From: an uncultured Candidatus Sumerlaeota bacterium
GTDB lineage: Bacteria > Sumerlaeota > Sumerlaeia > MVZB01 > JAJFLK01
Assembly (NCBI GenBank): GCA_964463045.1
Contig: CAYXAU010000007.1
Location: forward strand, 39,916-103,915
DNA length: 64,000 nucleotides
Reading direction: 5' to 3'
Shown here: piece by piece, positions 2-46,027 of the stretch
How the letters are laid out: every line of letters starts with the position of its first letter
Numbering within the stretch: position 1 is the stretch's first letter
Made by a program: the position numbers and the translations under genes
The notes under the pieces: model-generated
Told to the model about the DNA's origin: nothing
What the model saw: only the letters and a program-made list of their open reading frames with translations
Databases searched by the model: none

Positions 2-1918
2 CTGATCGGCGAGAGTGGGCATCTCCTGCTGCGGGCCTTCGGCGCGCGCCCGCGGGCGGCGCTTATCGGGGCGTTCTTCCTGACGTGGGCCGGAAATCCG
101 CAGGCGTTTCTCACGGCGCTGGATCAATACGACTACCACGTGGGCCGGTCCCTGGAGCCGCTCGAACGCCGCGGCTTCCTTTTCGCGCCGGCCTACCTGC
201 GGGGGCTCCGCGAGAAGGAATGGCGCTTCGTCGATTATCCGTTCTGGAATCCGTCGCGCGTTCTCAGTCAACCCCGAGCGTCCGGCCAGACTATCCCCGG
301 CACGATCACGGAGTTCACCGCCTGGTCGGCCATCCTGGGGGACTTCCACGCTCACCATCTGGCGCTTCCGTGGACCATCGGTTTGGTGGCCCTGCTTCTG
401 GGAGGCGATCGATGGTTTTTCCTCGATCGGCGGCGTCGCGGCCGTGGGTTCTCGGCGGGGGGGGAAAGAAATCGTGAGAAAGGGCCCCCTCCCGGGGAGG
501 GTGCGAGATCGAAGGCTGCCTTCGGCGACGGACAGTCCGCCCCCGGGCTGCGATTCCTCCTCTGGGCGGGGCTGGGGATGGTCTTGGCGGGAGCGGCCAC
601 GCTGGCCAATCTCTGGATCGGTCCGCTTATCGCCCTTACGCCGGCCCTGGCCGTTCTCGGCCGGCGAGGGCTCGGATGGCGCGGTTGGTCGGCTCGCCTC
701 GCCTTCTGGCTGATCTTGGGGGCGGCGCTGGGGGCGGGGGCCTATCTGATCCGCCAACCGGCTTCGGGCTTGAGGAGAACGCCACCGCGCGAGTCGTCGG
801 CTTCGCAGAAGGGGGTCTGGGAGACGATTCGGTCGCGGGCCGAGGACGTGCCCATCAAACGCCTTCCGCCGATCAACCGTTCGTCGACGCGGGAATTGAT
901 TCGGATGTGGGGCTTTCATGCGGGGTTGCTCGGGCTCGCGATCGTCGTGGCTGCCGCCCGTCGTCGGCCCACGATCCCTCAAGCCCTCCTGCTGGGCGGG
1001 GCGATCGGGATCGCCGCCGCGCAATGGCGCCTGCTGACCGAGGAGCCGGGCCTCTTGTGGGTTGCGCTCGCCACGGCGACGCTCGCGCTGGCGGGGGGTC
1101 GCCGCCCCTGGTTCCGCCGCGAGGCGATGATCGCGACGGCCGGAGCCTGCCTGCTGCTGGGGGGACTGGAGATGCTCTACATTCAGGACACGATGGGGAG
1201 CGGTTGGCTCGCGCGGTATAACAGTTACTTCAAACTAAGTTATCCGGCCTGGCCGGTTCTGGGGGCGGGGGCATGGATCGGCGTGGTTCGAGTCTGGCAA
1301 CTTCGGGCGCCGATGCCGGTCCGCGCCGGCTTGCGGACGTTCCTCATCCTGATGATCCCGCCGGCCATGGCGATGGCCTTGTTCGGGATTCCAGCGCGTC
1401 TGCTGCAGGCGCGCATCGGCGACAAGTCGCCCCGGGGGCCGACGCTTCACGCCGGCGCCTGGCTCAGCAATCGACCCGGTTACGAGGCCGAGTCGGCCCT
1501 GCTCCAATGGATCCGCGACAACGTCCCGCCGCGCGAGCGCGTGGCCGAGGCCGCCCTCCCCGCCGCCTACGGCTACATGGGGCGGGTGGCGAGCCTCGCG
1601 GGACGGCCCGTTCTGCTCGGCTGGAGCCATCATGAAACCCAGTGGCGGGGGGCGGCCGCCGGGCGCCCCATCGAGGAGGCAGTCCGGCGGACGAGGGCGA
1701 TTTACGAGGCGCCGACGGCCGACGCCCTGCGCCAAGCGGCCCGCGAGGCCGGCCTGCGATGGATCGTTCTCGGCAAAACGGAGATCGAGCATTACGGACG
1801 GGAACGGGCCGCCGAAATTTATCAAACGCTTCGCCAGGCGGCCGTTGCTCGCGCCTGGTATCCCCCGGAGCGGCCCGAGGCGTTCATTTTCGAAATCCCG
1901 CGGGCCGAAGGGGAGTAA
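2..1918 (+). CDS. Polytopic integral membrane protein with C-terminal soluble domain (GT-C-like / putative glycosyltransferase). It is 5'-truncated by the window edge.
   Basis: The frame is open from nt 2 with no stop before the listed GTG at 140. There are many hydrophobic helices. The C-terminal ~130 aa are a hydrophilic domain (GWSHHETQWRG...). No specific family is recognised. Confidence 0.5.
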   Translation: MIGESGHLLLRAFGARPRAALIGAFFLTWAGNPQAFLTALDQYDYHVGRSLEPLERRGFLFAPAYLRGLREKEWRFVDYPFWNPSRVLSQPRASGQTIPGTITEFTAWSAILGDFHAHHLALPWTIGLVALLLGGDRWFFLDRRRRGRGFSAGGERNREKGPPPGEGARSKAAFGDGQSAPGLRFLLWAGLGMVLAGAATLANLWIGPLIALTPALAVLGRRGLGWRGWSARLAFWLILGAALGAGAYLIRQPASGLRRTPPRESSASQKGVWETIRSRAEDVPIKRLPPINRSSTRELIRMWGFHAGLLGLAIVVAAARRRPTIPQALLLGGAIGIAAAQWRLLTEEPGLLWVALATATLALAGGRRPWFRREAMIATAGACLLLGGLEMLYIQDTMGSGWLARYNSYFKLSYPAWPVLGAGAWIGVVRVWQLRAPMPVRAGLRTFLILMIPPAMAMALFGIPARLLQARIGDKSPRGPTLHAGAWLSNRPGYEAESALLQWIRDNVPPRERVAEAALPAAYGYMGRVASLAGRPVLLGWSHHETQWRGAAAGRPIEEAVRRTRAIYEAPTADALRQAAREAGLRWIVLGKTEIEHYGRERAAEIYQTLRQAAVARAWYPPERPEAFIFEIPRAEGE

Positions 1919-2019
1919 GCGTGGCCCGAGGGCCCGGCCCCACGCGCCGTGTTGGCGCTTGCGCGCCCGACGGGAGCGGCCAATAATGCTCGGCGACCGT
2001 TGAGACGCTTGGCCATCCG

Positions 2020-2460
2020 ATGACGCGACGGCCCCGCACTTCCACGCCGCACAGCCCCCTGGCCGGTCAATTCTTCTCCGCTCAGGCCCCGTTGTTCTCG
2101 CTCAGCGCGGGTCTCTGGAACCCGCCGACGGACATTTTCGAGTGCCAGGAGGCCGCCGTGATCCGGATGGAAGTGCCGGGCGTGCTGCCGGCAGATCTGG
2201 AGATCATGGCCCGGGGGCGGCGTCTCATCGTGCGGGGTCACCGTTCGGAGCCGCGCGCCGCCGAGATTCTCTGCTACCACTTGACCGAGGTGCGCTACGG
2301 CCGATTCGTGCGCGTCTTTGAGTTTCCCTTCGCCCTCGACCAGCGGGAGATCGAGGCGACGTTCGAGGCGGGATTCTTGGTTATCCGCGTCCCGAAGCAA
2401 CGCCCGGCCCCCAGCAGCATCACAATCACGTTATTAAGCGAGGAAGACTCGGGGCTCTGA
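2020..2460 (+). CDS. Hsp20/alpha-crystallin family small heat-shock protein
   Basis: Alpha-crystallin domain pattern (DIFE...AVIRMEVPGV...DLEI...L.VRG...RYGRF.R.F.FP...D...I.A.F..G.L.I..PK). The size is 146 aa. Its stop overlaps the lon start (TGATG). Confidence 0.85.
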   Translation: MTRRPRTSTPHSPLAGQFFSAQAPLFSLSAGLWNPPTDIFECQEAAVIRMEVPGVLPADLEIMARGRRLIVRGHRSEPRAAEILCYHLTEVRYGRFVRVFEFPFALDQREIEATFEAGFLVIRVPKQRPAPSSITITLLSEEDSGL

Positions 2461-4967
2461 TGCCCGGCTCAGGCACCAGTCCGGCCGAGGCGATGGGCGC
2501 GCTGGAGGGCGGCGAAGCCGTCGGCGCCCCCGAGCCCGGATCGAGCTGGGTCCAGGATGTGCGGGTCCCGGAGGACCTGCCGATCCTCCCCAACGAGAAC
2601 TACGTTCTCTACCCTTCGATGATCGCGCCGTTGGTGGTCGAGGAGGAGGCCCAGATCGCCGTCATTGACGAGGTGATGAAAGGCGACCGGATCATCGGTC
2701 TCTTCGCCGTTCGGCCGGCCGAGCCGGCCCCGGAGAGCCCCGCCGAAAGTGCGCTCTACGACGTCGGCACGGCGGCCATCATCCTCAAGATGCTCAAGAT
2801 GCCCGACGGGACCGTTCGGCTGCTGATCCACGGGTTACGGCGCGTGCGGATCGTCGAGCGGGTGTCGACGCATCCGGTCCTGCGCGCGCGCATCGAGCCG
2901 CTCCTGAGCGTGGCCTTGGAGGACAATGAGACGAAGGCCATGATGCGAACGACGCAACAGCTTCTACGGCAATTCGTCCAGGAAAGCGGTCAGCCGGAGG
3001 ACGTGGTGATCGCGGCCACGAACCTGGCTCATCCGGGCAAACTCGCCGATCTGATCGCCTCCAATCTCTCGATCCCGCTGGAGGAACACCAGGCGTTGCT
3101 GGAGCTGGCCGACCCCAAACAACGTCTCCTTAAAATCGAAGAAATCCTGACGCGCGAGCTGGAGATCGCCCGTCTGGGGTCCCGCATTCAGGATCAGATC
3201 AAATCGCGGATGGACAAGTCCCAACGGGAGTTCTATCTCCGCGAGCAGATGAAGGCGATCCGCCGTGAGCTGGGCGAGGAGGAAGAAGGGCTCTCCGAAA
3301 TCGACGAGCTTCGGGGGCGGATCAAGAGCGCCCGCATGCCCGCCGAAATCCGCAAAGTCGCCGAGAAGGAACTGGCCCGATTGGCCAGCATCCCGATGGC
3401 CAGCCCCGAACACACCGTCGCTCGCAGTTACCTGGGCTGGCTCCTCGCCCTCCCCTGGGCCAAACGGACGCGGGAGACCCTCGACATGGAGCGCGCCCGG
3501 CGCATTCTGGACGAGGACCACTATAACCTGGAAAAGGTCAAGGAGCGGATTCTGGAATATCTGGCCGTCGTCAAGCTGCGGCGGAGCCTGAAGGGGCCCA
3601 TCCTTTGCCTGGTCGGAGCGCCGGGGACGGGCAAGACGTCCTTGGGACGTTCGATCGCGCGGGCCATGGGCCGACGATTCGCCCGTATTTCGCTGGGCGG
3701 GATGCGCGACGAGGCCGAAATCCGGGGCCACCGCCGGACCTATATCGGCTCGATGCCGGGGCGGATCATCAAAGCGATCAAGGATTGCGGGACGGTCAAT
3801 CCGGTCCTGATGCTGGATGAGATCGACAAGCTGGGGGCGGACTTTCGAGGCGACCCGGCCTCGGCCCTCCTGGAGGTCCTCGACCCCGAACAGAATCGGA
3901 ACTTTACCGATCACTACCTCGACGTCCCCTATGATCTCTCCCAGGTGATGTTCATCACCACGGCCAACGTGCTGGACACGATCCCCGGCCCGCTGCTGGA
4001 TCGGATGGAAGTCCTGCGCCTCAGCGGCTACACCCTGCAGGAGAAACTCAAGATCGCGCGGGCTTTTCTCATCCCGCGGGCCGTCGAAGGGACCGGTCTC
4101 AAACCGGGCGATCTCGAGTTCACCGAGGAGGCGTTGGAGCGGATCATCGAGGGCTACACGCGCGAGGCGGGCCTGAGGAACCTGGAGCGGGAAATCGCCA
4201 ACATCTGCCGGAAGGCCGCCCGGCGGGCGGCGACGGGCGATCGCTCGAAGACGCGCGTCGACGCCGCCCACGTCGAGGCGGCGCTCGGCCCCCGGCGCTT
4301 CATGCCCGAGGACGCCGGCCGGGCCGCCGTCCCCGGCGTGGCCATCGGCCTGGCCTGGACGCCCGCCGGCGGCGAACTCCTCTTCATCGAGGCGACCTCC
4401 ACGCCCGGCGACGGGCGGCTCATCTTGACGGGTCAGTTGGGCGACATCATGAAGGAATCGGCCCAGGCGGCGATGACCTGCCTTCTGGCGCAGCGTCGCG
4501 CGCTCGGGATCGATCCGGCGCGCCTGAAAGGCCGCAATTTCCATATCCACGTCCCCGCCGGCGCCACACCCAAGGATGGACCCTCGGCCGGGGTGGCGAT
4601 CCTCATGGCGCTGGCCTCGCTGGCCCGCGAGCAGCCGATCCGGGCCCAAACCGCCATGACCGGCGAGATCACGCTCAAGGGGTCGATCCTCGCCGTCGGT
4701 GGGATCAAAGAGAAGGTGCTCGCGGCCCACAGGAGCGGGATACGACGGATCATCCTGCCGAAACTCAACGAGCGGGACCTGAGCGACGTGCCGGATGAGA
4801 TCCGACAGAGCCTCCATTTCCACCTGGTCGACCGTGCCGAGGAAGCCTTCGCCGTTTCCTTCCCGGACGCGCGCCCCCAACGCCCTCCAGCTCGCCCTCA
4901 ACGTCGCCCGCGCGCCCGAGGCTCCGAGCGGCGTCGGCGGCTCCCGCCAGCCCGGGTCAAGGATTAG
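2460..4967 (+). CDS. lon: ATP-dependent Lon protease (La)
   Basis: Lon N-terminal substrate-binding domain ([13 protein letters not shown]), AAA+ Walker A (GAPGTGKTS) and C-terminal S16 protease domain with PKDGPSAG Ser-Lys dyad motif. It has a basic Arg/Pro-rich C-terminal tail. Confidence 0.95.
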
Positions 4968-4988
4968 GCCGCCCGGAGGTTGCCCCCG

Positions 4989-6008
4989 ATGGATGCCCGT
5001 TTGACCGCCGGCCTGAGCCCGCCTGCCGCGGCCTCCGTCCAGGCTCCGGCGCTCCTGCGAGTCAAAGAGCTGGTTAAGCACTTTCGCCTGCGTGGGGGGC
5101 TGCTGGGGGGCCGGGCGGCCGTCGTTCGCGCCGTCGATGGAGTCTCCCTTGAGGTGGCCGAGGGAGAGACGCTGGGTCTGGTCGGAGAAAGCGGCTGCGG
5201 CAAGACGACGCTGGGGCGGACGATCATCCGCCTGATCGAGCCGACGGGCGGCGAAGTGTATTTGGAGGACTCCCCCAACCTGCTCAGGCTCACCTCACGA
5301 CAGATGCTTCCCTATCGACGCAAGCTTCAGATGATCTTTCAAGACCCCTACAGTTCGCTGAACCCGCGGATGACGATCGGGGGGACGCTGGCCGAGCCGC
5401 TTAAGATTCACGGACTGGCGCGGGGCCGTCGTCTGGAGCGCGTGGCCGAATTGCTGGAGTGCGTCGGGTTGCCGTCGGACGCGGCCGGGCGATATCCGCA
5501 CGAGTTCAGCGGCGGGCAACGCCAGCGCGTCGGCATCGCCCGGGCCCTCGCCGTCGAGCCGCGTCTGATCATCGCCGATGAGCCGGTCTCGGCGCTCGAC
5601 GTCTCCATCCAGGCTCAGATCATCAACCTCTTGCAGGAGCTTCAGGAAAAGTTCGGGCTGGCGTTCCTGTTCATCGCGCACGATTTGAGCGTCGTCGGCC
5701 ACATGAGTCACCGCGTGGCGGTCATGTATCTGGGGAAGATCGTTGAGCAAGGCCCGAAAGGCGCGATTTTCGGGGCCCCCTTGCATCCTTACACCGAGGC
5801 CCTCCTCAAATCGGTCCCCAAAATGGACCCCGATTCGGGTCGGAAGAAAATCGTCCTCGAAGGCGACGTCCCCAGCCCGATCAATCCCCCGCCCGGCTGT
5901 CCCTTCCATCCTCGCTGTCCGAAAGCCCTGCCCGCCTGCGCGACGACGGTCCCGCGGTTTCTGGAACATCGGCCCGGTCATTGGGCCGCCTGTCTGCTGT
6001 ACGAATGA
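4989..6008 (+). CDS. ABC transporter ATP-binding protein, oligopeptide/dipeptide OppF/DppF type
   Basis: Walker [13 protein letters not shown] signature LSGGQRQRV, Walker B IIADEP, and the oligopeptide-transporter C-terminal extension ([17 protein letters not shown]). The ORF track starts at TTG 4980. ATG 4989 with GGAGG upstream is preferred. Confidence 0.85.
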
Positions 6009-7939: not shown

Positions 7940-8197
7940 CGCCAGGCCCTCACGAAATCAGCTAAGGGGGCTCCTCGCCCGGGCAGCGCCCATGGGAGAT
8001 TACCAAGCCCCCCAACGACGGCGCAACCTCGCTCGTCATGGCCGACCGTTTCGATCGGATGAAGACGGGAGCATGGCCCGACGAGAGTCTCATCTCCGCC
8101 TCGCGCCCCAAGGGCGAGGGTTCCGAGACGCGAGCCGGGGCGTTAGAATCCCGCCGGTTCGCTCTGATCCCCTTAGCCGCCCTGTGGACGCTTCACT

Positions 8198-10933
8198 GTG
8201 ATCCATCGCCCACGATTGCAAGGCTTCATCGAACGAGCGTGGGTGCCGGTCGGTCTCGCGTTGATCGCCCTCGGTTTTCACCGGTGGCTGCCCAGCGGGC
8301 GCCTGCCCGTCAGCTCCGACATGACGATGATCTATGCCCCGTTCTACTCGCTGCGATGGGACCACGGCCCGCCGCTCTGGAATCCCCACGTCGCCGGCGG
8401 GACGCCGATGGACGGCAACTTCCAGTTCAGCCTCGCCTATCCGCTGCGCTGGCCGTTCTTTTTCCTCGATGACTGGCGGTCTTACTTCAGCCTCTTTCTC
8501 TTTCTCCACTATCTGATCGCCCTCTTCGGGGCCGTGGGGGCGCTGCGAGCGTGCGGCCTTCGGCGGGGTTCGGCGGCGCTCGGCGCCATCGTTTTCGCCT
8601 GCGGCGGCTACATGATCGGCCGGATCATCAATACTACGATCTTCCTGGCCAGTTGCTGGTTCCCATGGCTCATCTGGGGGGCGGTCGGTCGCGGCCGCGC
8701 CGCTGGGCCGATCTCGGCTCTGGCCATCGCCGCCATTATCTGGATCGGCTCCCCTCACCTGATGATCTACGGGACCGTCGGCTATGCGGTGGCGTGGGGT
8801 TTCGCCGGCGGCGCTTTCGTGGAGCCGAACGACCTCCCCGGCGAGAGCGGGCCGGCCCGCCGAACACCCTGGCGTCACGGGCTCTATTTCGCCCTCGGCG
8901 TCGCCGCCGGAGCCGTCGCGCTGATCCCGGGCCTGGCTCAGGTGAGGGAGTCCGTCCGGGTCGAGACTACGATTGAGAACAATCTGGCCGATTCCCTGAC
9001 CTGGGGGGAGCTTCCCTTTTCGCTGCTCGGCGGGGCCGGGGGGTTCATCACGCCGGAGATCAATGACAAATGCCTCTACGTCGGCGGCGCGGCCTGGACG
9101 CTCATCCTGCTCGCCGCCGCGCAGGGCCGCGCGTGGCGTGATCGCCGTTGGTGGCTGGGCGTGGCGTTAACGGCCGTCGGGCTCGGTCTGGCGTTGGGTC
9201 GCGCGGTCGGCTGGCAGTTCTTGATGCCGTACGTCCCGGCGCTGCGGTTGCTGGAGGGCCCTTCGCGAGCGCTCGTCATCTCAGCCTTTGGACTGGGGTT
9301 GATGACGGCGGTCGGTCTGGAGAGCCTCATGACGCTGCCAACGAGTCGGCGGCGCGTCGTTGGGGCGGGGCTCCTGCTGACGGGAGTGACGGCTCTTTCG
9401 GTGATCGCCGCCGCGCTCCGAACGGCCGGTCTTCTGGGGGATGCGCTGCGGGGATGGCTTCTGGTCCCGGGGTCGGTCTTCGGCTGGGTCCGGGGCCCGG
9501 TCGGCCTCGCGCTGCCGATTTTTCCGCTCCTCGACGGGGGGCTGACGTTGATCCCGGCGGTCGGGCTGGCGCTGGCGTGGCCGGGTTCGGGCCGAGGGCT
9601 TGGCCCGGCGCTGGCCGCTCTGGTCGTCCTGGAACTTCTCCACTTTGCGCCGCGCGTGGGCCCCCGGACGGTGTCTGGGGATTTCTTTGAACTGTCGGCG
9701 ACAACTCGCTGGTTGACTCTGCGCTCCGGAGAGGCTCCTTTCCGAATCGCCGGTTTCGATCCTCTGCAACATCATGACACCGAATGGGACGGGCTTCATA
9801 AGCTCAAATTCCTGACGCCCAACCTGGCTACCCTCCCTGGTCTCGAGGACGCTCGGGCCTTCGATCCGCTGACGAGCCGGGCCTACCGGGACCTGCTCGC
9901 CCGGACGGCGGGCCAAGCCCCGTTCAACGATCCCATCCGCAATTTCGATCTCGGCCGGCCCGATGAAGACCTGTTTCGCCTCCTCAACGTCCGATATCTG
10001 ATCGGGGACCCCTACAGCCGCCGGCTGACGCATTTTCCCCAGATCGTCGGGCCCGGCTCAGGGCTGGTTCGCGTTGAGGCCTGGGAGGCGGCCGCGGAGG
10101 AGCGAGCGGTGACGGCCTGGGCCATCGTGAGTTACGTTGACACCGATCGACCCTTGAGGCCTGGCGAAGAAGTCGCCCGATTGATCATCGAGGCCGAGGA
10201 GGGGGTTTTCCGCTTCCCTATCCGTTATGGGCGCGAGACGGCCCATCTTCTGGATTCCCCTGAACGCGCCGCCGAGCTGGGCGTCACGGCCGCGATGCGG
10301 TGGAGCCGGTTCGGCGGGCCGGCCGAACGGGGCTTCCGGCTGAGCCAGACCAATTACCGCGCCCGCATCGAATTTCCGCGACCGCTTCGAGTGCGCGCGG
10401 CGGCGTGGGAACCCGGCCGTCAGGGAGCCCACCTGGTCCTCGCCGCCCAGGCTTATTCGGTCGCGCCGTCCGAGGGTCCACCGGCGTGGCGTCGAGTGTT
10501 CGACGATCCGGTGGCCCCCATTTTCGAGTTCATGGAGGCCCGGCCGCGGGTCGCGCTTCTGCCTGGCCGCGAAGCGACGGGTTCACTCGATCTCACCGTC
10601 GCGGACTGGACCGAACTGCCGGGGATCAAGCGGGTCGGTTATACCTCGCCGGCTTGGCTGACGGTCGAAACGGAAAGCGAGGCCGGAGGTCTTCTCGTCG
10701 TGCGTTCGGCCTGGGCGCCGGGATGGCAGGCGCGGGTCAAGGGAAAGCCGGCGCCGGTGCGGCGCGTTGACGGCTTTCTTCAAGGGGTCGTCATCCCCGG
10801 CGGTGAAGTCCTCGTTGAGTTGCGTTACGCTCCCGGACGATTCAAGGCGGGCTGGGCGCTCAGTCTGCTGGCGCTTTTCGCTTTGGGGGCGCTCCAGATC
10901 GCCGAGGGCCGACGAAGGAAGGGCCGTTCATGA
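8198..10933 (+). CDS. Large polytopic membrane protein, YfhO-like/GT-C-fold family (putative glycosyltransferase)
   Basis: The N-terminal ~500 aa contain more than 10 predicted TM helices with a WPFFF motif region, followed by a ~400 aa soluble C-terminal domain. The 3' end overlaps the next gene start (ATGA). Confidence 0.6.
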   Translation: MIHRPRLQGFIERAWVPVGLALIALGFHRWLPSGRLPVSSDMTMIYAPFYSLRWDHGPPLWNPHVAGGTPMDGNFQFSLAYPLRWPFFFLDDWRSYFSLFLFLHYLIALFGAVGALRACGLRRGSAALGAIVFACGGYMIGRIINTTIFLASCWFPWLIWGAVGRGRAAGPISALAIAAIIWIGSPHLMIYGTVGYAVAWGFAGGAFVEPNDLPGESGPARRTPWRHGLYFALGVAAGAVALIPGLAQVRESVRVETTIENNLADSLTWGELPFSLLGGAGGFITPEINDKCLYVGGAAWTLILLAAAQGRAWRDRRWWLGVALTAVGLGLALGRAVGWQFLMPYVPALRLLEGPSRALVISAFGLGLMTAVGLESLMTLPTSRRRVVGAGLLLTGVTALSVIAAALRTAGLLGDALRGWLLVPGSVFGWVRGPVGLALPIFPLLDGGLTLIPAVGLALAWPGSGRGLGPALAALVVLELLHFAPRVGPRTVSGDFFELSATTRWLTLRSGEAPFRIAGFDPLQHHDTEWDGLHKLKFLTPNLATLPGLEDARAFDPLTSRAYRDLLARTAGQAPFNDPIRNFDLGRPDEDLFRLLNVRYLIGDPYSRRLTHFPQIVGPGSGLVRVEAWEAAAEERAVTAWAIVSYVDTDRPLRPGEEVARLIIEAEEGVFRFPIRYGRETAHLLDSPERAAELGVTAAMRWSRFGGPAERGFRLSQTNYRARIEFPRPLRVRAAAWEPGRQGAHLVLAAQAYSVAPSEGPPAWRRVFDDPVAPIFEFMEARPRVALLPGREATGSLDLTVADWTELPGIKRVGYTSPAWLTVETESEAGGLLVVRSAWAPGWQARVKGKPAPVRRVDGFLQGVVIPGGEVLVELRYAPGRFKAGWALSLLALFALGALQIAEGRRRKGRS

Positions 10934-38349: not shown

Positions 38350-39852
38350 TCAGTCCCTTGAAGCGTTGGCGTCGGAGGCGTCCGGGATCGAATGCCCGAG
38401 ACGCCGAAGATGAGCCTCCAGCGAGTGCTCGGCCCAGCGCCACATCTCCCGCGGCACGTCGTCATAGGCCGCCGACATCAATTCCTGCCGGGTCCGAGGG
38501 CCGTCGGCCAGGGCGGCCCGGATGCGCTCTTCGCGCCAGAGGCGATGGTCGATGTACTGACGGAGGACGGACGCGGGGTCGTGGAGCGGCGCGCCGTGCG
38601 CCGGAATCATGAGCGTGGCTTCCAGACGGGTCAGCCGCTCCAGACTCCGAAGGTAGTCGGTCATGTCGCCGCCATGGCGGGGTGAGACGACGATGGTGCT
38701 CCCCTGGGCGACCATGTCGCCGCAGATGAGCGTCCTCGAGGTCTCCTCAAAGAAACACAGGTGACCGGGATCGTGGCCGGGGGTGTGCAGGCATCGGAGT
38801 CGCCAATCGGGGCCGCCGGGAACGATCAGGATTTCGTCGTCCTCCAGCAGGCGATCCACGGCGAACCGGACGCGCTCGGCGGTCCGCGCGTGCGCCCAGA
38901 CGGGAGCGCCGAAGACCTGCCGCACGAAATCGGCGGCGCCGACGTGATCGGGATGCGAGTGCGTCAGAAGGACGGCCTCAAGCCGCCCCCCCGCTTCCAA
39001 CAGATGCTCGAGTTGCCGGCGCAAGAGCGCTTGATCGGTTTCGTAAGGCGTCCCGGGGTCGATCAGGAAAATCCGACGCTCGCCGACGGCGATCATGTTG
39101 GTGTGCGTCGCCGGGGGGAGCGTTGGCGTGCGCAGGGGGAAAACGTAGATTCCCGCCCGATATTCGATGCGGCCCGGTTCGGCCGGCTCCAGATGGGTCG
39201 TCCGTCGCAGCGGCGCGAGCGCCGCCGGATAACCGAAGTCGCTTAATTGCTGAAGGGCGTAAGCCACGGGGGCCGGCAGGAGGATGTCCCCCTGACGCCA
39301 GCGCCGACGCGCCTCGGCCGGGTTGATCCAGAGGAGTTCGTCGAGTTCCCCCTCGATGAGCTCTTCGGAACGGGGCCCCAGGTGCCGGTAAAGGAAATAA
39401 CGCGTGTGGAAACGGATCGGGCTCATCCGAGGGGTGATCCAGAGCCCCGCGGGTTCGAACCGTCGGGCGTCAATCCGCAGCGCGTGACGACGGAGAAAGA
39501 CATCGAAGGCCGACTCCTCGCCCAGGACGGCGCGACGCGCCTGCCGCAGAATGTCCGCTGACGGCGCCCGTTCGACGCCAAGCAGCAAGCCCGTCTCCTC
39601 GAACACCTCGCGGACGAGAGCGTGGATCGCCGCCGCCGTCTCGGCGTCCTCCGCCCCGGTGATATGGGCCGCCCCTTCGGCATCGTGAATGCTGCCGCCG
39701 GGAAAGGCGTGATACCCCCCCATGAAGCGGAGCTTGTCGCTGCGCCGGACGAGCAACAGTTCGTCCCGGCGGGCGTCGTCGAGAATAATGGCGGCAGCCG
39801 CCTTGCGGGGTTCAGCCACCCGGGCCCGATCTGAAATCGAGGGCTCGTTCAT
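38350..39852 (-). CDS. Bifunctional NUDIX hydrolase (CoA-pyrophosphatase-type) / MBL-fold (glyoxalase-II-like) hydrolase
   Basis: The N-terminus has the NuCoA motif LLVRRSDKLRFMGGYHAFPGG and the Nudix box REVFEETGL. The C-terminus has the MBL motif LLTHSHPDHVG with downstream GDMV and PAHG. The start is assigned at MNEPS (39852), overlapping the YceD-like stop by 4 nt. Confidence 0.8.
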   Translation of the reverse strand: MNEPSISDRARVAEPRKAAAAIILDDARRDELLLVRRSDKLRFMGGYHAFPGGSIHDAEGAAHITGAEDAETAAAIHALVREVFEETGLLLGVERAPSADILRQARRAVLGEESAFDVFLRRHALRIDARRFEPAGLWITPRMSPIRFHTRYFLYRHLGPRSEELIEGELDELLWINPAEARRRWRQGDILLPAPVAYALQQLSDFGYPAALAPLRRTTHLEPAEPGRIEYRAGIYVFPLRTPTLPPATHTNMIAVGERRIFLIDPGTPYETDQALLRRQLEHLLEAGGRLEAVLLTHSHPDHVGAADFVRQVFGAPVWAHARTAERVRFAVDRLLEDDEILIVPGGPDWRLRCLHTPGHDPGHLCFFEETSRTLICGDMVAQGSTIVVSPRHGGDMTDYLRSLERLTRLEATLMIPAHGAPLHDPASVLRQYIDHRLWREERIRAALADGPRTRQELMSAAYDDVPREMWRWAEHSLEAHLRRLGHSIPDASDANASRD

Positions 39853-40463
39853 GAGGCGGGATGCTCTCCGAACCGGCGGAGGGCGCGCTTCCACTCCGGG
39901 ACGTCGGCGGCCTCGGGCGAGGCCGCGCCTCGGCAGCGACACGTTTCCACGTTGAGGTTGGCGCCGCAGCCCGGACACAAACCTTTGCAATCGGCCCGGC
40001 ACCGCGGGTAATCGGGCAAAGCGGCCATGATCAGCTCTCGCAGCGTTTCCGCCACGTCGAGCTCCTCCCCTTCGTAATAGGAGACGATATCTTCGACGCC
40101 GGCCGGATCGAGCGGCGAGACCTCCCGCTCGGCCGAGCGCCAGAGCCAGACCTCATCGACGGGCACGCGCAACTCCAGACGGACCGGAGCCAGACATCGA
40201 ACGCAGGGAGTCTCCACCGTTACCTTCAGCCCGCCGTGGCCCTGGACGTCACGGCCCACGAGCGCGAACGTGACGGCCCCCGTCACCGCCCCGACGAAGG
40301 CGTAGGCGTCGTCTTTGAGATCGAACCACTCCGGCCGATGGTCCAGAGGGAGGGTCTTCGGACCTTCGCGGAGATGGTCGATCAGGACTTTGAGCGGCTG
40401 AACGGCCATGGCACTGACTGGCCGGGCCGGGCGGCCCGACGACGGGAAGACCTCAACGAACAA
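39849..40463 (-). CDS. DUF177/YceD-family protein
   Basis: C-terminal Cys cluster RCRADCKGLCPGCGANLNVETCRC typical of YceD/DUF177. It lies between mreB and the NUDIX-MBL gene on the same strand. Confidence 0.75.
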   Translation of the reverse strand: MFVEVFPSSGRPARPVSAMAVQPLKVLIDHLREGPKTLPLDHRPEWFDLKDDAYAFVGAVTGAVTFALVGRDVQGHGGLKVTVETPCVRCLAPVRLELRVPVDEVWLWRSAEREVSPLDPAGVEDIVSYYEGEELDVAETLRELIMAALPDYPRCRADCKGLCPGCGANLNVETCRCRGAASPEAADVPEWKRALRRFGEHPAS

Positions 40464-40471
40464 AGGGCGGC

Positions 40472-41491
40472 CTAGTAGCCGACCGATCCGTTGAGGCTCT
40501 TAAAGATTTCGATGGATTCCAGCGATTTGCCCGTGCCGAGCACGATCGCCGTTTCCGGATTGTCGGCCAGGCGGACGTTGAGCCCCGTCTCGGAGCGGAG
40601 CAGCCGATCCAGCCCGCGCAGTTGCGCCCCGCCGCCGGCCAGCACGATGCCGGAATCGACGATATCAGCGGCCAGCTCCGGCGGCGTGCGCTCCAGCGTC
40701 GATTTGACGGCGTTGACGATGGCCATGACCGGCTCGGTGAGAGCCTCCCGGATTTCCTCGCTTGAGATTTCCAGCGTCCGCGGCATCCCGGCGACCATGT
40801 CGCGCCCCTTGATCACCATCTTCGTCTCGTGCGGCAGGCAATCGGCCGAGCCGATCTTGATTTTGATTTCCTCGGCCGTCCGGTCGCCGATCAAGAGATT
40901 ATACTTGCGCTTGATGTGCTGGACGATGGCGTCGTCCATCCGGTCGCCCGCGATCCGCTCGGATTTGCTGACGACGATCCCGCCGAGCGAGATGACGGCC
41001 ATCTCGGTCGTCCCGCCGCCGACGTCGATGATCATCGAGCCGGCGGGCTCGGTCACCGGCAGCCCGGCGCCGATCGCCGCGGCGAACGGCTCCTCGATCA
41101 GATAGACCCGGTGAGCGCCGGCCTGTTGGGCCGATTCCTCAACGGCCCGACGCTCGACCTCGGTAATGCCGGAAGGGACGGCGATCACGACCCGCGGGCG
41201 AACCGTCGGCAGCGTCGGCCGGACGGCCCGCGCCCGGCGCAGAAAGTATGAGATCATCGTCCGCGTGATGCCGAAATCGGCGATGACGCCGTCCTTCATC
41301 GGCCGGATCGCCGTGATGTAAGCCGGTGTCCGCCCCAGCATCCGCTTGGCTTCGGAGCCGACGGCCAGCACCTTGCGCGTCTCGCTGTTGATGGCGACGA
41401 CCGACGGCTCGGAAAGGACGATCCCCTCCCCCCGGACGTAGACAAGCGTCGTCGCCGTCCCCAGGTCGATCCCGATGTCGAGCGTGAACAC
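40472..41491 (-). CDS. mreB: Rod-shape-determining actin homologue MreB
   Basis: [21 protein letters not shown], and AVGSEAK.MLGRTP are the MreB signature. Length is 339 aa. Confidence 0.95.
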
Positions 41492-41889: not shown

Positions 41890-42738
41890 TCAGAGCCGAC
41901 GCTCGATCCATCGACTGATCCGCTCAATCACCCCCCTCCGGCCCGTCTCGTTCAGAATCTCGTGATACATCTCGGGGAAGGAGATGAACTCCTTATCCGG
42001 CGACCCCAAACGCTCGAAAAAGTCACGCGCCCGACTGGGGTCGGCCACTCGGTCCTCGGCGGCTGACAGAATGAGCGTCGGCAATCGCAATTCGGCGGCC
42101 GCATCGAACGCCGCGGCGATCGCCCGGCTCGTCTCGAAAAACCAACCGGCCGTCGCCGTCCGGAAAACCAGGGGATCCGCGGCGTAGGCCCGCCCGACCT
42201 CGGGATCGTGCGAGAGCTCCTCCGGGCGAATCCCCGAGGCAAACGCCAATGAGGGAAGAACGATCGAGGCGAGGCGCCCCAAAGCCCTTTTCCAGGGCGG
42301 GACGGGCCGAGCCACGCCGAAAAACGGGGAGGACAGAATCAGACCGCGCCAGGGGGGGCTTCGTCGCCATGCATAATCGGCGGCCACCAGACCGCCGAAG
42401 CTGTGCCCCAGAACGAACAGCGGCTCCGAATCGATACGCGCCCCCAGGGCCGCCAGCCAGGCGTCCAGATCGGATCGATAGTCCTCAAACCGGCGCACGT
42501 GACCGCGTGCCCCGCCGGAGCGGCCATGCCCGCGCAGGTCGAGCCCCGCCACGCCCCACCCGCGCGCGTTGAAGTCCGCCGCCGTCAGCCCGTAACGGCC
42601 CGCATGTTCGGCGTAGCCGTGAATGATCGCTATCCAGGCCGCTGGCCGCTCGACCGGCCAGCATCCCCAGGCCAGGCCGAGCCCGTCGGGAACCGTCAGC
42701 CAAGACTCTTCCTCCGATGGGTGGCCCGCGTTCGTCAT
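41890..42738 (-). CDS. Alpha/beta-hydrolase, lysophospholipase/monoacylglycerol-lipase-like
   Basis: HGYAEHAGRY, nucleophile elbow GHSFGG, and a C-terminal Asp/His region (YHEILNE). Confidence 0.75.
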   Translation of the reverse strand: MTNAGHPSEEESWLTVPDGLGLAWGCWPVERPAAWIAIIHGYAEHAGRYGLTAADFNARGWGVAGLDLRGHGRSGGARGHVRRFEDYRSDLDAWLAALGARIDSEPLFVLGHSFGGLVAADYAWRRSPPWRGLILSSPFFGVARPVPPWKRALGRLASIVLPSLAFASGIRPEELSHDPEVGRAYAADPLVFRTATAGWFFETSRAIAAAFDAAAELRLPTLILSAAEDRVADPSRARDFFERLGSPDKEFISFPEMYHEILNETGRRGVIERISRWIERRL

Positions 42739-44561
42739 TGGCGGCTCGGCCCTTCCGCCGCCCCGGCTGGCGCCGATGAGCGGAACCTTCCGCGGCTGAG
42801 CGCGACGAGCCCCGCAAAGGCCCAGAAACCCCAGGCGCCGTAGGAAACCGCGAGCCCGCGCCGGCCCGGCGGCGAATGCTCATACCGCAACTCGGCCAGG
42901 TGCTCGCCGGCGGGGAGCGCCAACTCGATCAGGCCGTCGGCATCCGGGCGGATGGCCTCCGGGGCCCGCCGACCGTCCAGCGCAAACGACCAACCGGGAA
43001 AATAGAACGCGTGGACGCGCGCGCGGGCGGCGGGCGCCGCCTGATATCGCCAACGGTAACGGGTCCCCCGGCGGGAATGCTCGAGCAACGTCAGGCTTCC
43101 CTCGACCAACGTCAGGCGGTGCGGCGGCGCCGGATAAGCCTCCCAGAACGTCGGCGTGACGAGGGCATAATGAGAAGCGACGGGGCGATACTCCCGAATC
43201 ACTGACCCGATGAAACCGTCCAAGGGCCCTTTCGCCTCGGTCCAGACGCCGATCGTCCCTTCCGGATCGGGCAGATCAGCGGGAGGCCCCTCAATGAGCC
43301 CCGTCCTGGCGGGCGGCAGAGAGAGGGCCACGGCCAGGGCCGCCAGAACCAGAGGATGGATCCAGCGGGCGACCACCGGCCCGGCCAGCGCCGTCGCGGC
43401 CGCTCCGAACCAAGCGGTCAGGATTAGAAGTCGCCAGGGAAATTGGATGTAGAGGAAAAGTTCAGGAACTCGCCCCCAAGGCATCCAGCGGGAGACCATC
43501 AGCAGCGATAGCGCGAACAAAGCGAGCAAGACGCCGAGCCGATACCGCGCGGCGCGACCGAGACCGGGCCGAATCAGGGCCACGGCAGCCAGAAGAGCCC
43601 CCGTCATGAGCGCCAGACCCGGATTGACGGCGAAATCCCGCTCCACGCCGCCCAGGCTCAGCCCGCGTCCGTAGGCTTCCATGAAGAATTGAATCGGATA
43701 GAGGGAATGGCCGTGCAGGGCCCGAGCGCCTCCGGTCATCCAGCTCGCGTCCCCGGCATCGACGAGCCCGCGGAGCGCGAGGGCCGGATACCAGAAATAC
43801 GCCGAGAGGGCGAGCCCGAGCAGGGCGCTCCCGGCGACGCTCAGCAGCCAACGGACGGAACTCGCCGTCAGAACGGCGTAGAGCGCGATCAGGATCGTGC
43901 CGAAGAGGGCCAGAGCGTTATGGCTCAGGACGAGGAGCGCATAGGCGGGGGCAACGAGGAGCTGTCGGCCGGCCCCGCCGCCACGGCTCCATTCCAGCGC
44001 CACGAAGGCCCCGCCGAGGGTCGCCCAAGCCCAACATTCGGCCAGGCTCACGCGAACGAACAAATCCGTCAGATGATAGGGATTGAGGCCATAAACGACG
44101 GCGGCGACGAAGGCCCAGGCTCGCGGTCGGGGGGAGCCGTATCGGCGGCCCAAAAGCAGCCCGAAGCCATAGGCCGCGATTCCGCTCAGGACGAAGGCCA
44201 GATAGAAACTCATTCGCGTCGCCGGCCCCGTTCCGCTCCCCAAACCGACGACCATGGTCGCCGCGACGTAATACCCGAGCGGGGCGTAGAACGTGAAAAA
44301 CGGCCAACCGTAGCCATGGGCGACCTGGGGCAACCAGGGGACGTGGAACGGCCCTTGCGCGCGCCAGACCTCGCTCATGGCGGTCACGCGTTCCTGAGGG
44401 GCGTAACCTTCGTGGCCGGTCCAGCCGTATCGCCCGAACGTGGGGGCCAGGTAGATCAGGCATAGGGCAAGGATGAGGGCGGGCCAGCCCGTCGCGCCGA
44501 AGGCTGAGCGGGCGATCCTGCGCCGATCGGGGGGGGATTCGGTTCCAAGATCGGCCTTCAA
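42735..44561 (-). CDS. Polytopic membrane protein, YfhO-like/GT-C-like (paralogue of 8198..10933)
   Basis: More than 10 TM helices. Shares the WPFFTFYAPLGYY / PxWxP motif region with the 911-aa protein. C-terminal soluble domain. It is translationally coupled (4-nt overlaps) to the MFS transporter upstream and the hydrolase downstream. Confidence 0.55.
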   Translation of the reverse strand: MKADLGTESPPDRRRIARSAFGATGWPALILALCLIYLAPTFGRYGWTGHEGYAPQERVTAMSEVWRAQGPFHVPWLPQVAHGYGWPFFTFYAPLGYYVAATMVVGLGSGTGPATRMSFYLAFVLSGIAAYGFGLLLGRRYGSPRPRAWAFVAAVVYGLNPYHLTDLFVRVSLAECWAWATLGGAFVALEWSRGGGAGRQLLVAPAYALLVLSHNALALFGTILIALYAVLTASSVRWLLSVAGSALLGLALSAYFWYPALALRGLVDAGDASWMTGGARALHGHSLYPIQFFMEAYGRGLSLGGVERDFAVNPGLALMTGALLAAVALIRPGLGRAARYRLGVLLALFALSLLMVSRWMPWGRVPELFLYIQFPWRLLILTAWFGAAATALAGPVVARWIHPLVLAALAVALSLPPARTGLIEGPPADLPDPEGTIGVWTEAKGPLDGFIGSVIREYRPVASHYALVTPTFWEAYPAPPHRLTLVEGSLTLLEHSRRGTRYRWRYQAAPAARARVHAFYFPGWSFALDGRRAPEAIRPDADGLIELALPAGEHLAELRYEHSPPGRRGLAVSYGAWGFWAFAGLVALSRGRFRSSAPAGAAEGPSRQ

Positions 44562-46027
44562 GAGACGGTCCGGGCCGTCGAGGGCTTGGGGGCCTGGGCA
44601 TCCTGCCAGACCGTCAGATAGTCCATGCTGCGCTTGAAAGACGGGAGCCCCAGATAAAGCAGGATGGCCGCGAGGAGATGGGCCGTGGTCGCCACCGAGA
44701 AGAGCGAATATCGGAGGGGTCGTTCAAGGCCCAGACCGTCTCGGAAGATGTAGTCGGTCGCCAGGGCGACGGCCGTCGGGCCGATCGCCAGGCCGACGAT
44801 ATTGACCACGAAAAGGTAAAGCGCCGAGGCCTGGCCGCGCATGCGAACCGGCATCATCTCCTGAATCGCCGCCGGCGCGACGCCGAACGGCATGCTCGCC
44901 ATGAACACCGACGGGATGAGGAACACGATGGCCAGCTCGGCCGTCGGCACCAGCGGGTAGAACATGCCGAACGGAGCCCAGATCCAGGAGGCGATAAAGC
45001 CGGAGCGCATTTTGGAGTCCGTGTAACCTCGCTTGGCGAGCCAGTCGGCCAGATAGCCGCCCGCTGCGATGCCGAGCGTGCCGGACACGGCGATGATGGT
45101 CCCGTACCAGATGCCGGCCTGGCGTTGGGTCCACCCGTACTCACGAATGAAGAAGGCGGGGATCCACGCCGAGCTGCCGTAAGCCGAAAACGACAGGAGC
45201 GAGAACCCGAAGTTGTGGCAGAGGATCGTCCGCCCATTGGCCCGGAAGTAGCGCAGGACCTCCCCCACGGGGACTTGGCGCGCGGCCGCCCCGCGGCCGC
45301 TCACGAGGGCGCGCCGGACGGGCTCGGCGAAGGTGTAAAGCAAGGGGACGACAAGCAGGCCGGGCAGGCCGACGATGATGAACACCTTTTGCCAGGCGGG
45401 GATGGTCCCCACCAAAGGAAGCGTCCAATCGGGCCCCTCTTTCACCAGGGCGACGGCCACGCCGCCGACGATCAGCGCGAGGCCGGAGCCGATGTAAATG
45501 CCGGTGCCGTAGACGCTGATGGCGGTGGCGAGCCTCTCGCGGCGGAAATAGTCCGTGATCAGCGAATAGGCCGCCGGGGAAAGCGACGCCTCCCCGACGC
45601 CGACACCGATCCGATAAAGCGCCATCTGGAAATAATTCTTGGCCACGCCGCAGCCGGCGGCCATCAGGCTCCAGGCGGCCAATCCGGCCGCGATCAACGT
45701 TCGCCGGCTCATCACGTCGGCCAGCCAGCCGAGCGGAAAACCGAAGATCGCGTAAAAGACGGCGAACATCGGCCCCATAAGGATGCTCACCTGCCAATCG
45801 TGCTCCAACGAGAGCCCCTGCTTCAGATCGTCGACCAGAAGATTCATGAGCTGGCGGTCGGCGAAGGAAAAAATGTACACCACCATCAAGACGCCCACGA
45901 CGTACCAGGCGTAGAGGAGCGGCGGATAGGGGACCTCGGCTGGAGCCGCCGGCGGCGCTTCGGCCGAGGGGGGTTCTTCGCGACGCTGTTCCGGGGAGAT
46001 CGCCACCATGTTCCTCCCGAGGATCAT
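44558..46027 (-). CDS. Major facilitator superfamily transporter
   Basis: 12 TM helices and the MFS motif A (G.L.DR.GRR). It is first gene of a three-gene minus-strand operon. Confidence 0.8.
   Translation of the reverse strand: MILGRNMVAISPEQRREEPPSAEAPPAAPAEVPYPPLLYAWYVVGVLMVVYIFSFADRQLMNLLVDDLKQGLSLEHDWQVSILMGPMFAVFYAIFGFPLGWLADVMSRRTLIAAGLAAWSLMAAGCGVAKNYFQMALYRIGVGVGEASLSPAAYSLITDYFRRERLATAISVYGTGIYIGSGLALIVGGVAVALVKEGPDWTLPLVGTIPAWQKVFIIVGLPGLLVVPLLYTFAEPVRRALVSGRGAAARQVPVGEVLRYFRANGRTILCHNFGFSLLSFSAYGSSAWIPAFFIREYGWTQRQAGIWYGTIIAVSGTLGIAAGGYLADWLAKRGYTDSKMRSGFIASWIWAPFGMFYPLVPTAELAIVFLIPSVFMASMPFGVAPAAIQEMMPVRMRGQASALYLFVVNIVGLAIGPTAVALATDYIFRDGLGLERPLRYSLFSVATTAHLLAAILLYLGLPSFKRSMDYLTVWQDAQAPKPSTARTVS

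Follow-up and report, generated by a model that had tools for sequence, protein, structure and literature searches.

What does a bacterial protein act upon that carries a Nudix hydrolase and a hydrolase with the metallo-beta-lactamase (MBL) fold on one chain? The question is raised by a 500-residue protein encoded in a 64,000-nucleotide stretch of DNA from an uncultured Candidatus Sumerlaeota bacterium (contig CAYXAU010000007.1; the whole analysed stretch is hereafter called the window), where its gene lies downstream of mreB and of a YceD/DUF177 gene. Members of this Nudix-MBL family bear only generic database names such as "MBL fold metallo-hydrolase": the two kinds of enzyme are known, but their combination is unstudied. 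Our literature search found no paper on the fusion family, and every NCBIfam match of the protein was far below its cutoff. Our preferred, if tentative, reading of the sequence is that the protein may be a bifunctional cytoplasmic hydrolase of coenzyme A (CoA) conjugates, combining a Nudix diphosphatase with thioester hydrolysis by the MBL half.

The reading frame of the gene is open over 38350..40002 on the minus strand, and the ATG at 39852 gives the 500-residue product, which gene callers also chose on public contigs that encode an identical protein (independent JGI, ENA and Logan contigs). A first-pass annotation of the window had reported this open reading frame (ORF) together with a set of motifs, all of which were found at their expected positions, and Pfam bore out the NUDIX and Lactamase_B domains that it had placed in one protein: NUDIX (PF00293) matched residues 16-89 with 34.5 bits (cutoff 21.1) and Lactamase_B residues 251-419 with 100.1 bits, while a third domain, BLACT_WH (PF17778), matched residues 454-485 with 30.5 bits (cutoff 22.8). 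A word-indexed search retrieved more than 120 full-length homologues (468-565 residues, 47-61% identity) from Planctomycetaceae, Pirellulales, Planctomycetia and Hydrogenedentota metagenome-assembled genomes (MAGs), with both domains recorded in nearly all; MAGs of Planctomycetota and Hydrogenedentota supplied the named homologues nearest to the fusion, at ~50% identity. When 1.84 billion cluster representatives (clusters at 50% identity) were scanned exhaustively with HMMER, 723 clusters matched with E<=1e-30, and the best 150 of the 723 were almost all fusions of 480-530 residues aligned end to end. Further fused copies, on genome contigs, came from Nitrospirales (49%) and Anaeromyxobacteraceae (41%), in one MAG of each. 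Thus the fusion is real, old and widespread across several phyla.

Conservation was read from alignments of 19 and 119 homologues. Across the 119, the Nudix residues F50, G52, G53, R81, E82, E85 and E86 and the seven MBL metal ligands (H298, H300, D302, H303, H360, D379 and H419) were invariant; the earlier claim of one polypeptide with two catalytic domains therefore holds, with both domains intact. AlphaFold2, given the 119-sequence alignment, modelled the protein with a mean predicted local distance difference test (pLDDT) score of 94.3 and a predicted template-modelling (pTM) score of 0.91, and in this model it is one compact two-domain body. That an assembly error or a frameshift joined two genes, as the separate Nudix and MBL genes of distant relatives might suggest, is next to inconceivable, given the identical 500-residue ORF on the JGI, ENA and Logan contigs, the more than 119 full-length fusions (48-61% identity) and the hundreds of fused clusters; the frameshift-like case that we encountered (P0127/L038) goes the opposite way, being, as we read it, a fused gene that is split. 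At this locus (4001-5313 of a 1.44-Mb contig), a 215-residue Nudix gene and a 237-residue MBL gene overlap by 49 nucleotides, and the pair, with an aberrant Nudix C-terminus, looks like a frameshift in a fused gene, whether through a sequencing error or in a pseudogene.

The relatives with separate genes are informative in their own right. In an Acidimicrobiia MAG (L007, 1248-2842), each half has a complete gene of its own, and the two lie in different frames: a 266-residue Nudix gene (1248-2048) is followed by a 265-residue MBL-winged-helix gene (2045-2842), and stop and start overlap in a GTGA. Five more high-GC metagenome contigs carry Nudix and then MBL with overlaps of 4 or 1 nucleotides, so that the overlaps of the six split loci take the forms GTGA, ATGA or TGATG. 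According to the first-pass annotation, the fusion would be marked as an artefact if relatives had two genes separated by a stop; such genes do exist on these six contigs, but they form natural, translationally coupled pairs and lend the artefact no support. Because the split genes keep the order of the fused gene and overlap at stop and start, the case for functional coupling is stronger, and the pattern argues for the Nudix and MBL halves evolving as one module, fused or operon-split. Furthermore, that the halves stay paired in distant phyla, fused or in overlapping genes, and are predicted to form a compact body speaks for a substrate or pathway in common; the two halves probably act on one substrate or at consecutive steps. 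The metagenome scan behind these loci was swamped by the generic HxHxDH pattern, and both halves were present in ~7 of 80 loci. Around one of the split pairs (L052, 2424-11684), the genes run ArsA-ArsA, Nudix-MBL, Crp, RsiG-like, Nth, redoxin, a second Nudix and a CvpA-trypsin protease. This order seems to resemble Rv3671c-Rv3680 of M. tuberculosis H37Rv, in which the MBL gene beside crp would presumably be Rv3677c, for whose product only weak beta-lactamase activity is reported; we treat the equivalence as a lead.

The Nudix half pointed to CoA. Its closest solved structure was PDB 3qsj (E 1.8e-17 over residues 14-201, 31-32% identity; profile E 2.6e-38; Foldseek template-modelling (TM) score 0.72-0.75). 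For comparison with the animal family NUDT19, 13 orthologues named as such by NCBI/UniRef were aligned; the test used database sequences only. A profile of the bacterial Nudix domain matched this alignment by hhalign with a probability of 99.9 and E 2.7e-32 over 201 columns, while BLASTP of the Nudix half against one orthologue gave 4e-10. The NuCoA-like motif LLVRRSDKLRFMGGYHAFPGG has its NUDT19 counterpart in LLLQRAQNQRFMPGAHVFPGG, at equal spacing. The strict NuCoA pattern [LM][LF]TxR[SA]x3[RK]x3Gx3FPGG (PROSITE PS01293) is missed by a single residue (T->V); it was matched by 0 of 119 family members and 0 of 13 NUDT19 orthologues, and a relaxed form with the same spacing by 103 of the 119. 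The spacer within the Nudix box comprises 21 residues, as against 7 in the canonical Gx5Ex7REUxEExGU, with the flanking residues conserved; in NUDT19, which is active as an enzyme, an insertion of 45-49 residues lies within the Nudix box (PMC12894707).

Subfamily-specific matches of the Nudix half were all to CoA pyrophosphatases (PRK10707 with E 5e-5; 1nqy, NUDX11 and NUDT7 in the NuCoA region). A NudL/NUDT7 equivalog was rejected: PRK10707 scored 22.9 bits against a cutoff of 134, and the strict NuCoA pattern failed. By these comparisons the Nudix half is of the CoA-diphosphatase type, of the NUDT19/3QSJ kind; the first-pass annotation was right on the CoA type and the NuCoA-like motif, but not on the NudL/NUDT7 subfamily to which it had likened them. 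NUDT19 hydrolyses CoA and acyl-CoAs. The fold gave no specificity of its own, since beyond 3qsj all structures scored alike (E ~1e-7 to 1e-6), and a word-indexed search with the Nudix half alone returned few matches. Stand-alone NUDT19-like Nudix genes (~30% identity) were seen at four alphaproteobacterial loci (L011, L013, L014 and L021), which share an unannotated protein of 166-215 residues encoded immediately downstream on the opposite strand and an NAD-kinase-like gene, some having family-III CoA-transferase-like genes <=4.5 kb away; at a further locus (L022), the Nudix gene is followed by crotonase-, acyl-CoA dehydrogenase- and CoA-transferase-like sequences. These contexts were judged by eye. 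When the genes around 14 stand-alone Nudix loci were clustered, the only synteny to emerge was lineage-local.

The MBL half pointed to LACTB2. With this protein as query, human LACTB2 (PDB 4AD9) was the top match of residues 246-486 by phmmer (E 2.3e-22), by profile (E 1.8e-30, 109 bits over core and winged helix) and by Foldseek (TM 0.77), followed by TTHA1429, three Burkholderia proteins whose function is unknown, YcbL/GloC (profile E 5.5e-21), GloB and PqsE (profile E 3.5e-9). The seven metal ligands aligned with H77, H79, D81, H82, H145, D164 and H199 of LACTB2. Both in vitro and in living cells, LACTB2 acts as a single-stranded-RNA endoribonuclease (PMC4770246; bioRxiv 10.1101/2025.11.05.685548); bioinformatically it belongs to the glyoxalase-II group (PMC4770246), and its mutants H216A::R217T and R220T lost RNA cross-linking and activity (PMC4770246). 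The corresponding residues here, H436, R437 and R440, were invariant among the 119 homologues, the correspondence being taken from HMMER alignments with the numbering offset checked on the HWHRDH motif; the split MBL of L007 retains the HRxxRE motif as AHRRMRE. These residues may contact RNA or some other polyanionic group, for instance 3'-phospho-ADP, or their role may be structural.

GloB-type glyoxalase II, to which the first-pass annotation had likened the MBL half, was rejected: TIGR03413 scored 60.9 bits against a cutoff of 200.8 and PRK10241 40.1 against 421, and the C-terminal glutathione-binding helical domain of GloB is replaced by a BLACT_WH winged helix that superposes on LACTB2. 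By homology the MBL half is therefore a LACTB2-type di-metal (di-zinc) hydrolase with a winged helix. A role in anti-phage defence was also dropped, as PADLOC reported no related system for the fusion protein beyond an 18-bit generic MBL match (LmuA, E 2.5e-4).

How could the two halves work together? In the CoA-conjugate reading, the Nudix site would cleave the diphosphate of CoA, acyl-CoA or conjugates with a 3'-substituted ADP-pantetheine moiety into 3',5'-ADP and (acyl-)4'-phosphopantetheine, and the MBL site would hydrolyse a further ester bond, either in that substrate or in what the Nudix site makes of it. For this second step we favour cleavage of the thioester in acyl-(phospho)pantetheine or acyl-CoA; aberrant or surplus acyl-CoA would thereby be dismantled, and free 4'-phosphopantetheine would be released for CoA resynthesis. 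The substrates and the reaction order are inferences, as is any channelling from one site to the other. Several features are consistent with this reading: i) the Nudix half is homologous to NUDT19, has a NuCoA-like motif and carries its Nudix-box insertion at the same place; ii) the MBL half falls within the glyoxalase-II group, which includes thioesterases (GloB, YcbL/GloC, PqsE and MBLAC2); iii) the subfamily-specific Nudix matches are all CoA pyrophosphatases; iv) the halves are coupled, as a fusion or as overlapping genes, and are modelled as one body. PqsE is a 2-aminobenzoylacetyl-CoA thioesterase. MBLAC2 is an acyl-CoA hydrolase (PMC7949124). The thioesterase role that had been suggested for the MBL half is therefore possible, because LACTB2 shares its group with the acyl-CoA thioesterases PqsE and MBLAC2; but the closest characterised homologue, LACTB2 itself, is an endoribonuclease.

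This relationship is one of the points that weigh against a CoA-conjugate hydrolase. The nearest characterised relative of the MBL half cuts RNA, and the residues that it needs for RNA binding are invariant here; the GloB models remain far under their cutoffs, and we identified no thioesterase signature and no glutathione- or CoA-binding signature in the protein. The loci examined held no conserved CoA-metabolism genes beside the homologues. As for the Nudix half, by fold alone CoA-ases are no nearer to it than MutT, RppH or Dcp2, and Nudix substrate specificity is not reliably readable from sequence.

In the main rival reading, possible but doubtful, the protein would be an RNA 5'-end module: the Nudix half would remove a CoA-type or other nucleotide cap (dephospho-CoA (dpCoA)-RNA, possibly a 5'-PPP), leaving 5'-monophosphate RNA, and the tethered LACTB2-like half would then cut the RNA endonucleolytically, so that a single protein would do the work of RppH and then RNase E or RNase J. 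The RNA chain of dpCoA-RNA is joined at the position of the CoA 3'-phosphate, and therefore a CoA-type pocket could accept dpCoA-RNA. LACTB2 outscores all other matches of the MBL-winged-helix half by a wide margin, winged helix included; its RNA-binding H216/R217/R220 have invariant equivalents, with the motif kept in the split MBLs; and NUDT19 takes dpCoA, m7G and G caps off RNA in vitro (PMC7337524). However, the three domains are acidic to neutral (median isoelectric points 5.9, 5.4 and 6.5), no RNA-metabolism genes recur near the homologues, and N116 of LACTB2 is D333 here. Moreover the HRxxRE motif lies where the long helix between MBL core and winged helix begins, and may be structural there, and TTHA1429 keeps its residues only in part. 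A bolder form of this idea, which we consider rather unlikely, takes the Nudix-MBL protein as a Rosetta stone that joins the families of NUDT19 and LACTB2 on one class of substrate, most provocatively dpCoA-capped RNA. If so, it would be the first dedicated bacterial enzyme of CoA-cap RNA decay, the Nudix half decapping and the LACTB2-like half cutting endonucleolytically, and a functional partnership of NUDT19 and LACTB2 would be predicted in animal organelles. LACTB2 carries a type 1 peroxisomal targeting signal (PTS1) and is found in peroxisome proteomes, the peroxisome being the home of NUDT19 (PMC8919083); several NCBI records label NUDT19 "mitochondrial".

It is unlikely that the protein is instead a two-site hydrolase for some other substrate, or holds two independent activities, with the Nudix half acting on a different nucleoside-diphosphate conjugate, the MBL half on an ester, lactone, amide or phosphodiester, and the fusion serving co-regulation. 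Predicting the specificity of Nudix and MBL enzymes is notoriously difficult, the NCBIfam matches of the protein all lie far below cutoff, the one structure close in fold to the Nudix half, 3qsj, has no assigned function, and the presumed mycobacterial counterpart Rv3677c has only that weak activity; but the pairing persists across distant phyla, the two domains are predicted to pack into a compact body, and the NuCoA-like motif is strongly conserved. Very improbable is a service to cell shape or ribosome assembly together with MreB and YceD, at which the same strand, the 62-nucleotide gap and the 4-nucleotide overlap in the window might hint. The first-pass annotation had thought this neighbourhood telling, yet its order recurred in none of ~20 related loci: mreB and yceD flank the fusion gene solely on contigs identical to the window, and MreB and YceD were absent beside every non-identical homologue locus examined. 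Neither was encoded within +/-6 kb of the homologues in L001-L007, nor at the two closest relatives (60-61% identity), four more planctomycete/Hydrogenedentota loci or the actinobacterial loci, and tblastn of the MreB, YceD, HAD, Hydrolase_4, GT4, HisF and MFS proteins of the window against 27 genome loci placed none of them near any homologue. The Pfam-annotated contexts of seven further fusion loci had nothing in common. Thus the mreB-yceD linkage is lineage-specific, a local accident without functional weight.

Nitrogen genes offered another apparent association. P-II or glutamine synthetase was encoded <=4 kb from the module in three non-planctomycete loci of different phyla: P-II with an ammonium transporter in L003 (7677-9506), P-II alone in L006 (9965-10303) and two glutamine-synthetase genes in L007 (4732-7208). 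Neither was detected by tblastn over 80 metagenome loci (L039-L118), nor did either appear in the planctomycete Pfam contexts. Limited to three loci, the association is probably chance and was dropped.

Within the window, mreB, yceD and the fusion gene are three co-directional minus-strand ORFs (38350-41491), separated by a gap of 62 nucleotides and then joined by an overlap of 4. As first annotated, the gene lies downstream of mreB and its start overlaps the YceD stop in an ATGA, which was read directly in the sequence: the ATG of the fusion gene (39852-39850) shares bases with the TGA of the YceD ORF (39851-39849). Strand and spacing make co-transcription with mreB and yceD plausible. The fusion gene converges on a HAD-phosphatase gene 25 nucleotides off and is therefore the last of its transcription unit. 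The YceD ORF itself extends open to a TTG at 40463 (204 residues), while a start at the ATG at 40409 leaves the 62-nucleotide gap after mreB; a weak hairpin spans the mreB stop (40468-40485). The coordinates of these features are collected in the table.

Features of the fusion gene, its neighbours in the window and the split gene pairs of relatives (positions are those of the window, except for split pairs, which are given on their own contigs)
Feature	Position	Strand	Basis or remark
mreB	40472..41491	-	Pfam MreB_Mbl 478 bits; NCBIfam PRK13927 504 bits
YceD/DUF177 gene	39849..40409	-	186 residues from ATG (public calls); Pfam YceD (PF02620) 85.5 bits, cutoff 33.2
ATGA start/stop overlap, yceD/fusion gene	39849..39852	-	"cctcATGAacg" in sequence
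500-residue Nudix-MBL-winged-helix fusion gene	38350..39852	-	including stop codon; ORF list, Pfam, public gene calls, AlphaFold2 model
Nudix domain, NUDT19/3QSJ type, ~residues 13-222	39187..39816	-	PDB 3qsj, hhalign against NUDT19, Foldseek
NuCoA-like motif LLVRRSDKLRFMGGYHAFPGG, residues 33-53	39694..39756	-	F50, G52, G53 invariant in 119 homologues
Split Nudix box	39586..39696	-	G53-x5-E59, 21-residue spacer, R81-E82-x2-E85-E86-x-G88-L89
REVFEETGL, residues 81-89	39586..39612	-	R81, E82, E85, E86 invariant
Family motif WITPRMSPIRFHTRYF, residues 138-153	39394..39441	-	common to NUDT19 (WLTP...RRFDTxF); T140, P141, R147, Y152 invariant
MBL-fold catalytic domain, ~residues 228-425	38578..39171	-	Pfam Lactamase_B; LACTB2 4ad9 best PDB match
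MBL motif II THSHPDH, residues 297-303 (H298, H300, D302, H303)	38944..38964	-	invariant; aligns with LACTB2 HWHRDH
MBL motif III TPGHDPGH, residues 357-364	38761..38784	-	H360 metal ligand, H364 also invariant; aligns with LACTB2 TPGHTDDH
MBL motif IV GDMV, residues 378-381	38710..38721	-	bridging D379 invariant
MBL motif V PAHG, residues 417-420	38593..38604	-	P417, H419, G420 invariant
C-terminal helix and LACTB2-type winged helix, ~residues 426-490	38383..38577	-	Pfam BLACT_WH 454-485
HRLWRE	38530..38547	-	aligns with LACTB2 H216-R217-x-x-R220-E221; H436, R437, R440, E441 invariant
Split pairs in relatives	L043 ~521-2127; L044 ~1992-3685; L052 5346-6820; L053 837-2512; L056 ~61-1547		

A few other features of the window were observed. 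A 608-residue hydrophobic protein (42735-44561), by eye apparently a multi-pass membrane protein, had a weak PTPS_related Pfam match only; its gene overlaps with its stop the start of a Hydrolase_4 gene and with its start the stop codon of a gene for an MFS transporter. The AT skew was -0.277 at 8001-10000 and +0.25 to +0.31 at 42001-46000, and mostly between -0.15 and +0.15 elsewhere. Scans of the 64-kb window for tRNA genes and for Rfam families (at gathering score) found nothing, and a regex search for rpmF (L32), a non-conclusive method, found none in it.

NUDT19 and LACTB2 are medically studied animal families with debated physiological substrates: for NUDT19, control of the CoA pool is set against RNA decapping, while LACTB2 is a mitochondrial RNase in a thioesterase-rich MBL group. 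A module that is fused in hundreds of bacterial lineages and encoded by overlapping genes elsewhere is strong comparative evidence for one shared substrate, and it provides a cheap bacterial system for finding that substrate. Its main value lies in linking the two families.

How, then, does the protein compare with known systems? Among stand-alone Nudix enzymes, 3QSJ of Alicyclobacillus acidocaldarius (from structural genomics, without assigned function) lacks the fusion. The CoA pyrophosphatases NudL, NUDT7 and DR1184 share the spacing R-[SA]-x3-[RK]-x3-G-x3-FPGG, where the weak local matches lie, but the T of their motif is V/A here and theirs is another Nudix subfamily. In 5'-end-dependent RNA decay, too, a Nudix 5'-end pyrophosphatase (RppH) acts ahead of a nuclease (RNase E or RNase J, the latter of MBL fold); this is analogy only, as those are separate proteins, their Nudix is not CoA-type and RNase J contains a beta-CASP domain. 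With GloB, YcbL/GloC, PqsE and MBLAC2 the MBL half shares its subgroup and the THxHxDH, xPGHTxGH-like, GD and H motifs, YcbL ranking second among its PDB matches, but it has a winged helix in place of the C-terminal substrate-binding helices of GloB and PqsE. LACTB2, the human mitochondrial endoribonuclease, has all the metal ligands, the PF17778 winged helix and HRxxRE in common with it; unlike the fusion, LACTB2 stands alone, the two are ~25% identical, N116 is replaced by D333, and E118 lies in an insertion that is absent here. NUDT19 (RP2p, the animal peroxisomal acyl-CoA diphosphatase) is homologous over the whole Nudix fold and the helical region, sharing the motifs RFMxGxHVFPGG, REx2EE and WxTP...RFxT as well as an interrupted Nudix box, at ~26% identity and with 14 extra Nudix-box residues here against 45-49 in NUDT19. 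The extension at the C-terminus of NUDT19 (the PGDELY region) is missing from the fusion, as is a PTS1, and the fusion has the MBL half attached, while a counterpart of the PGDELY region is retained in at least the split Nudix protein of the Acidimicrobiia MAG.

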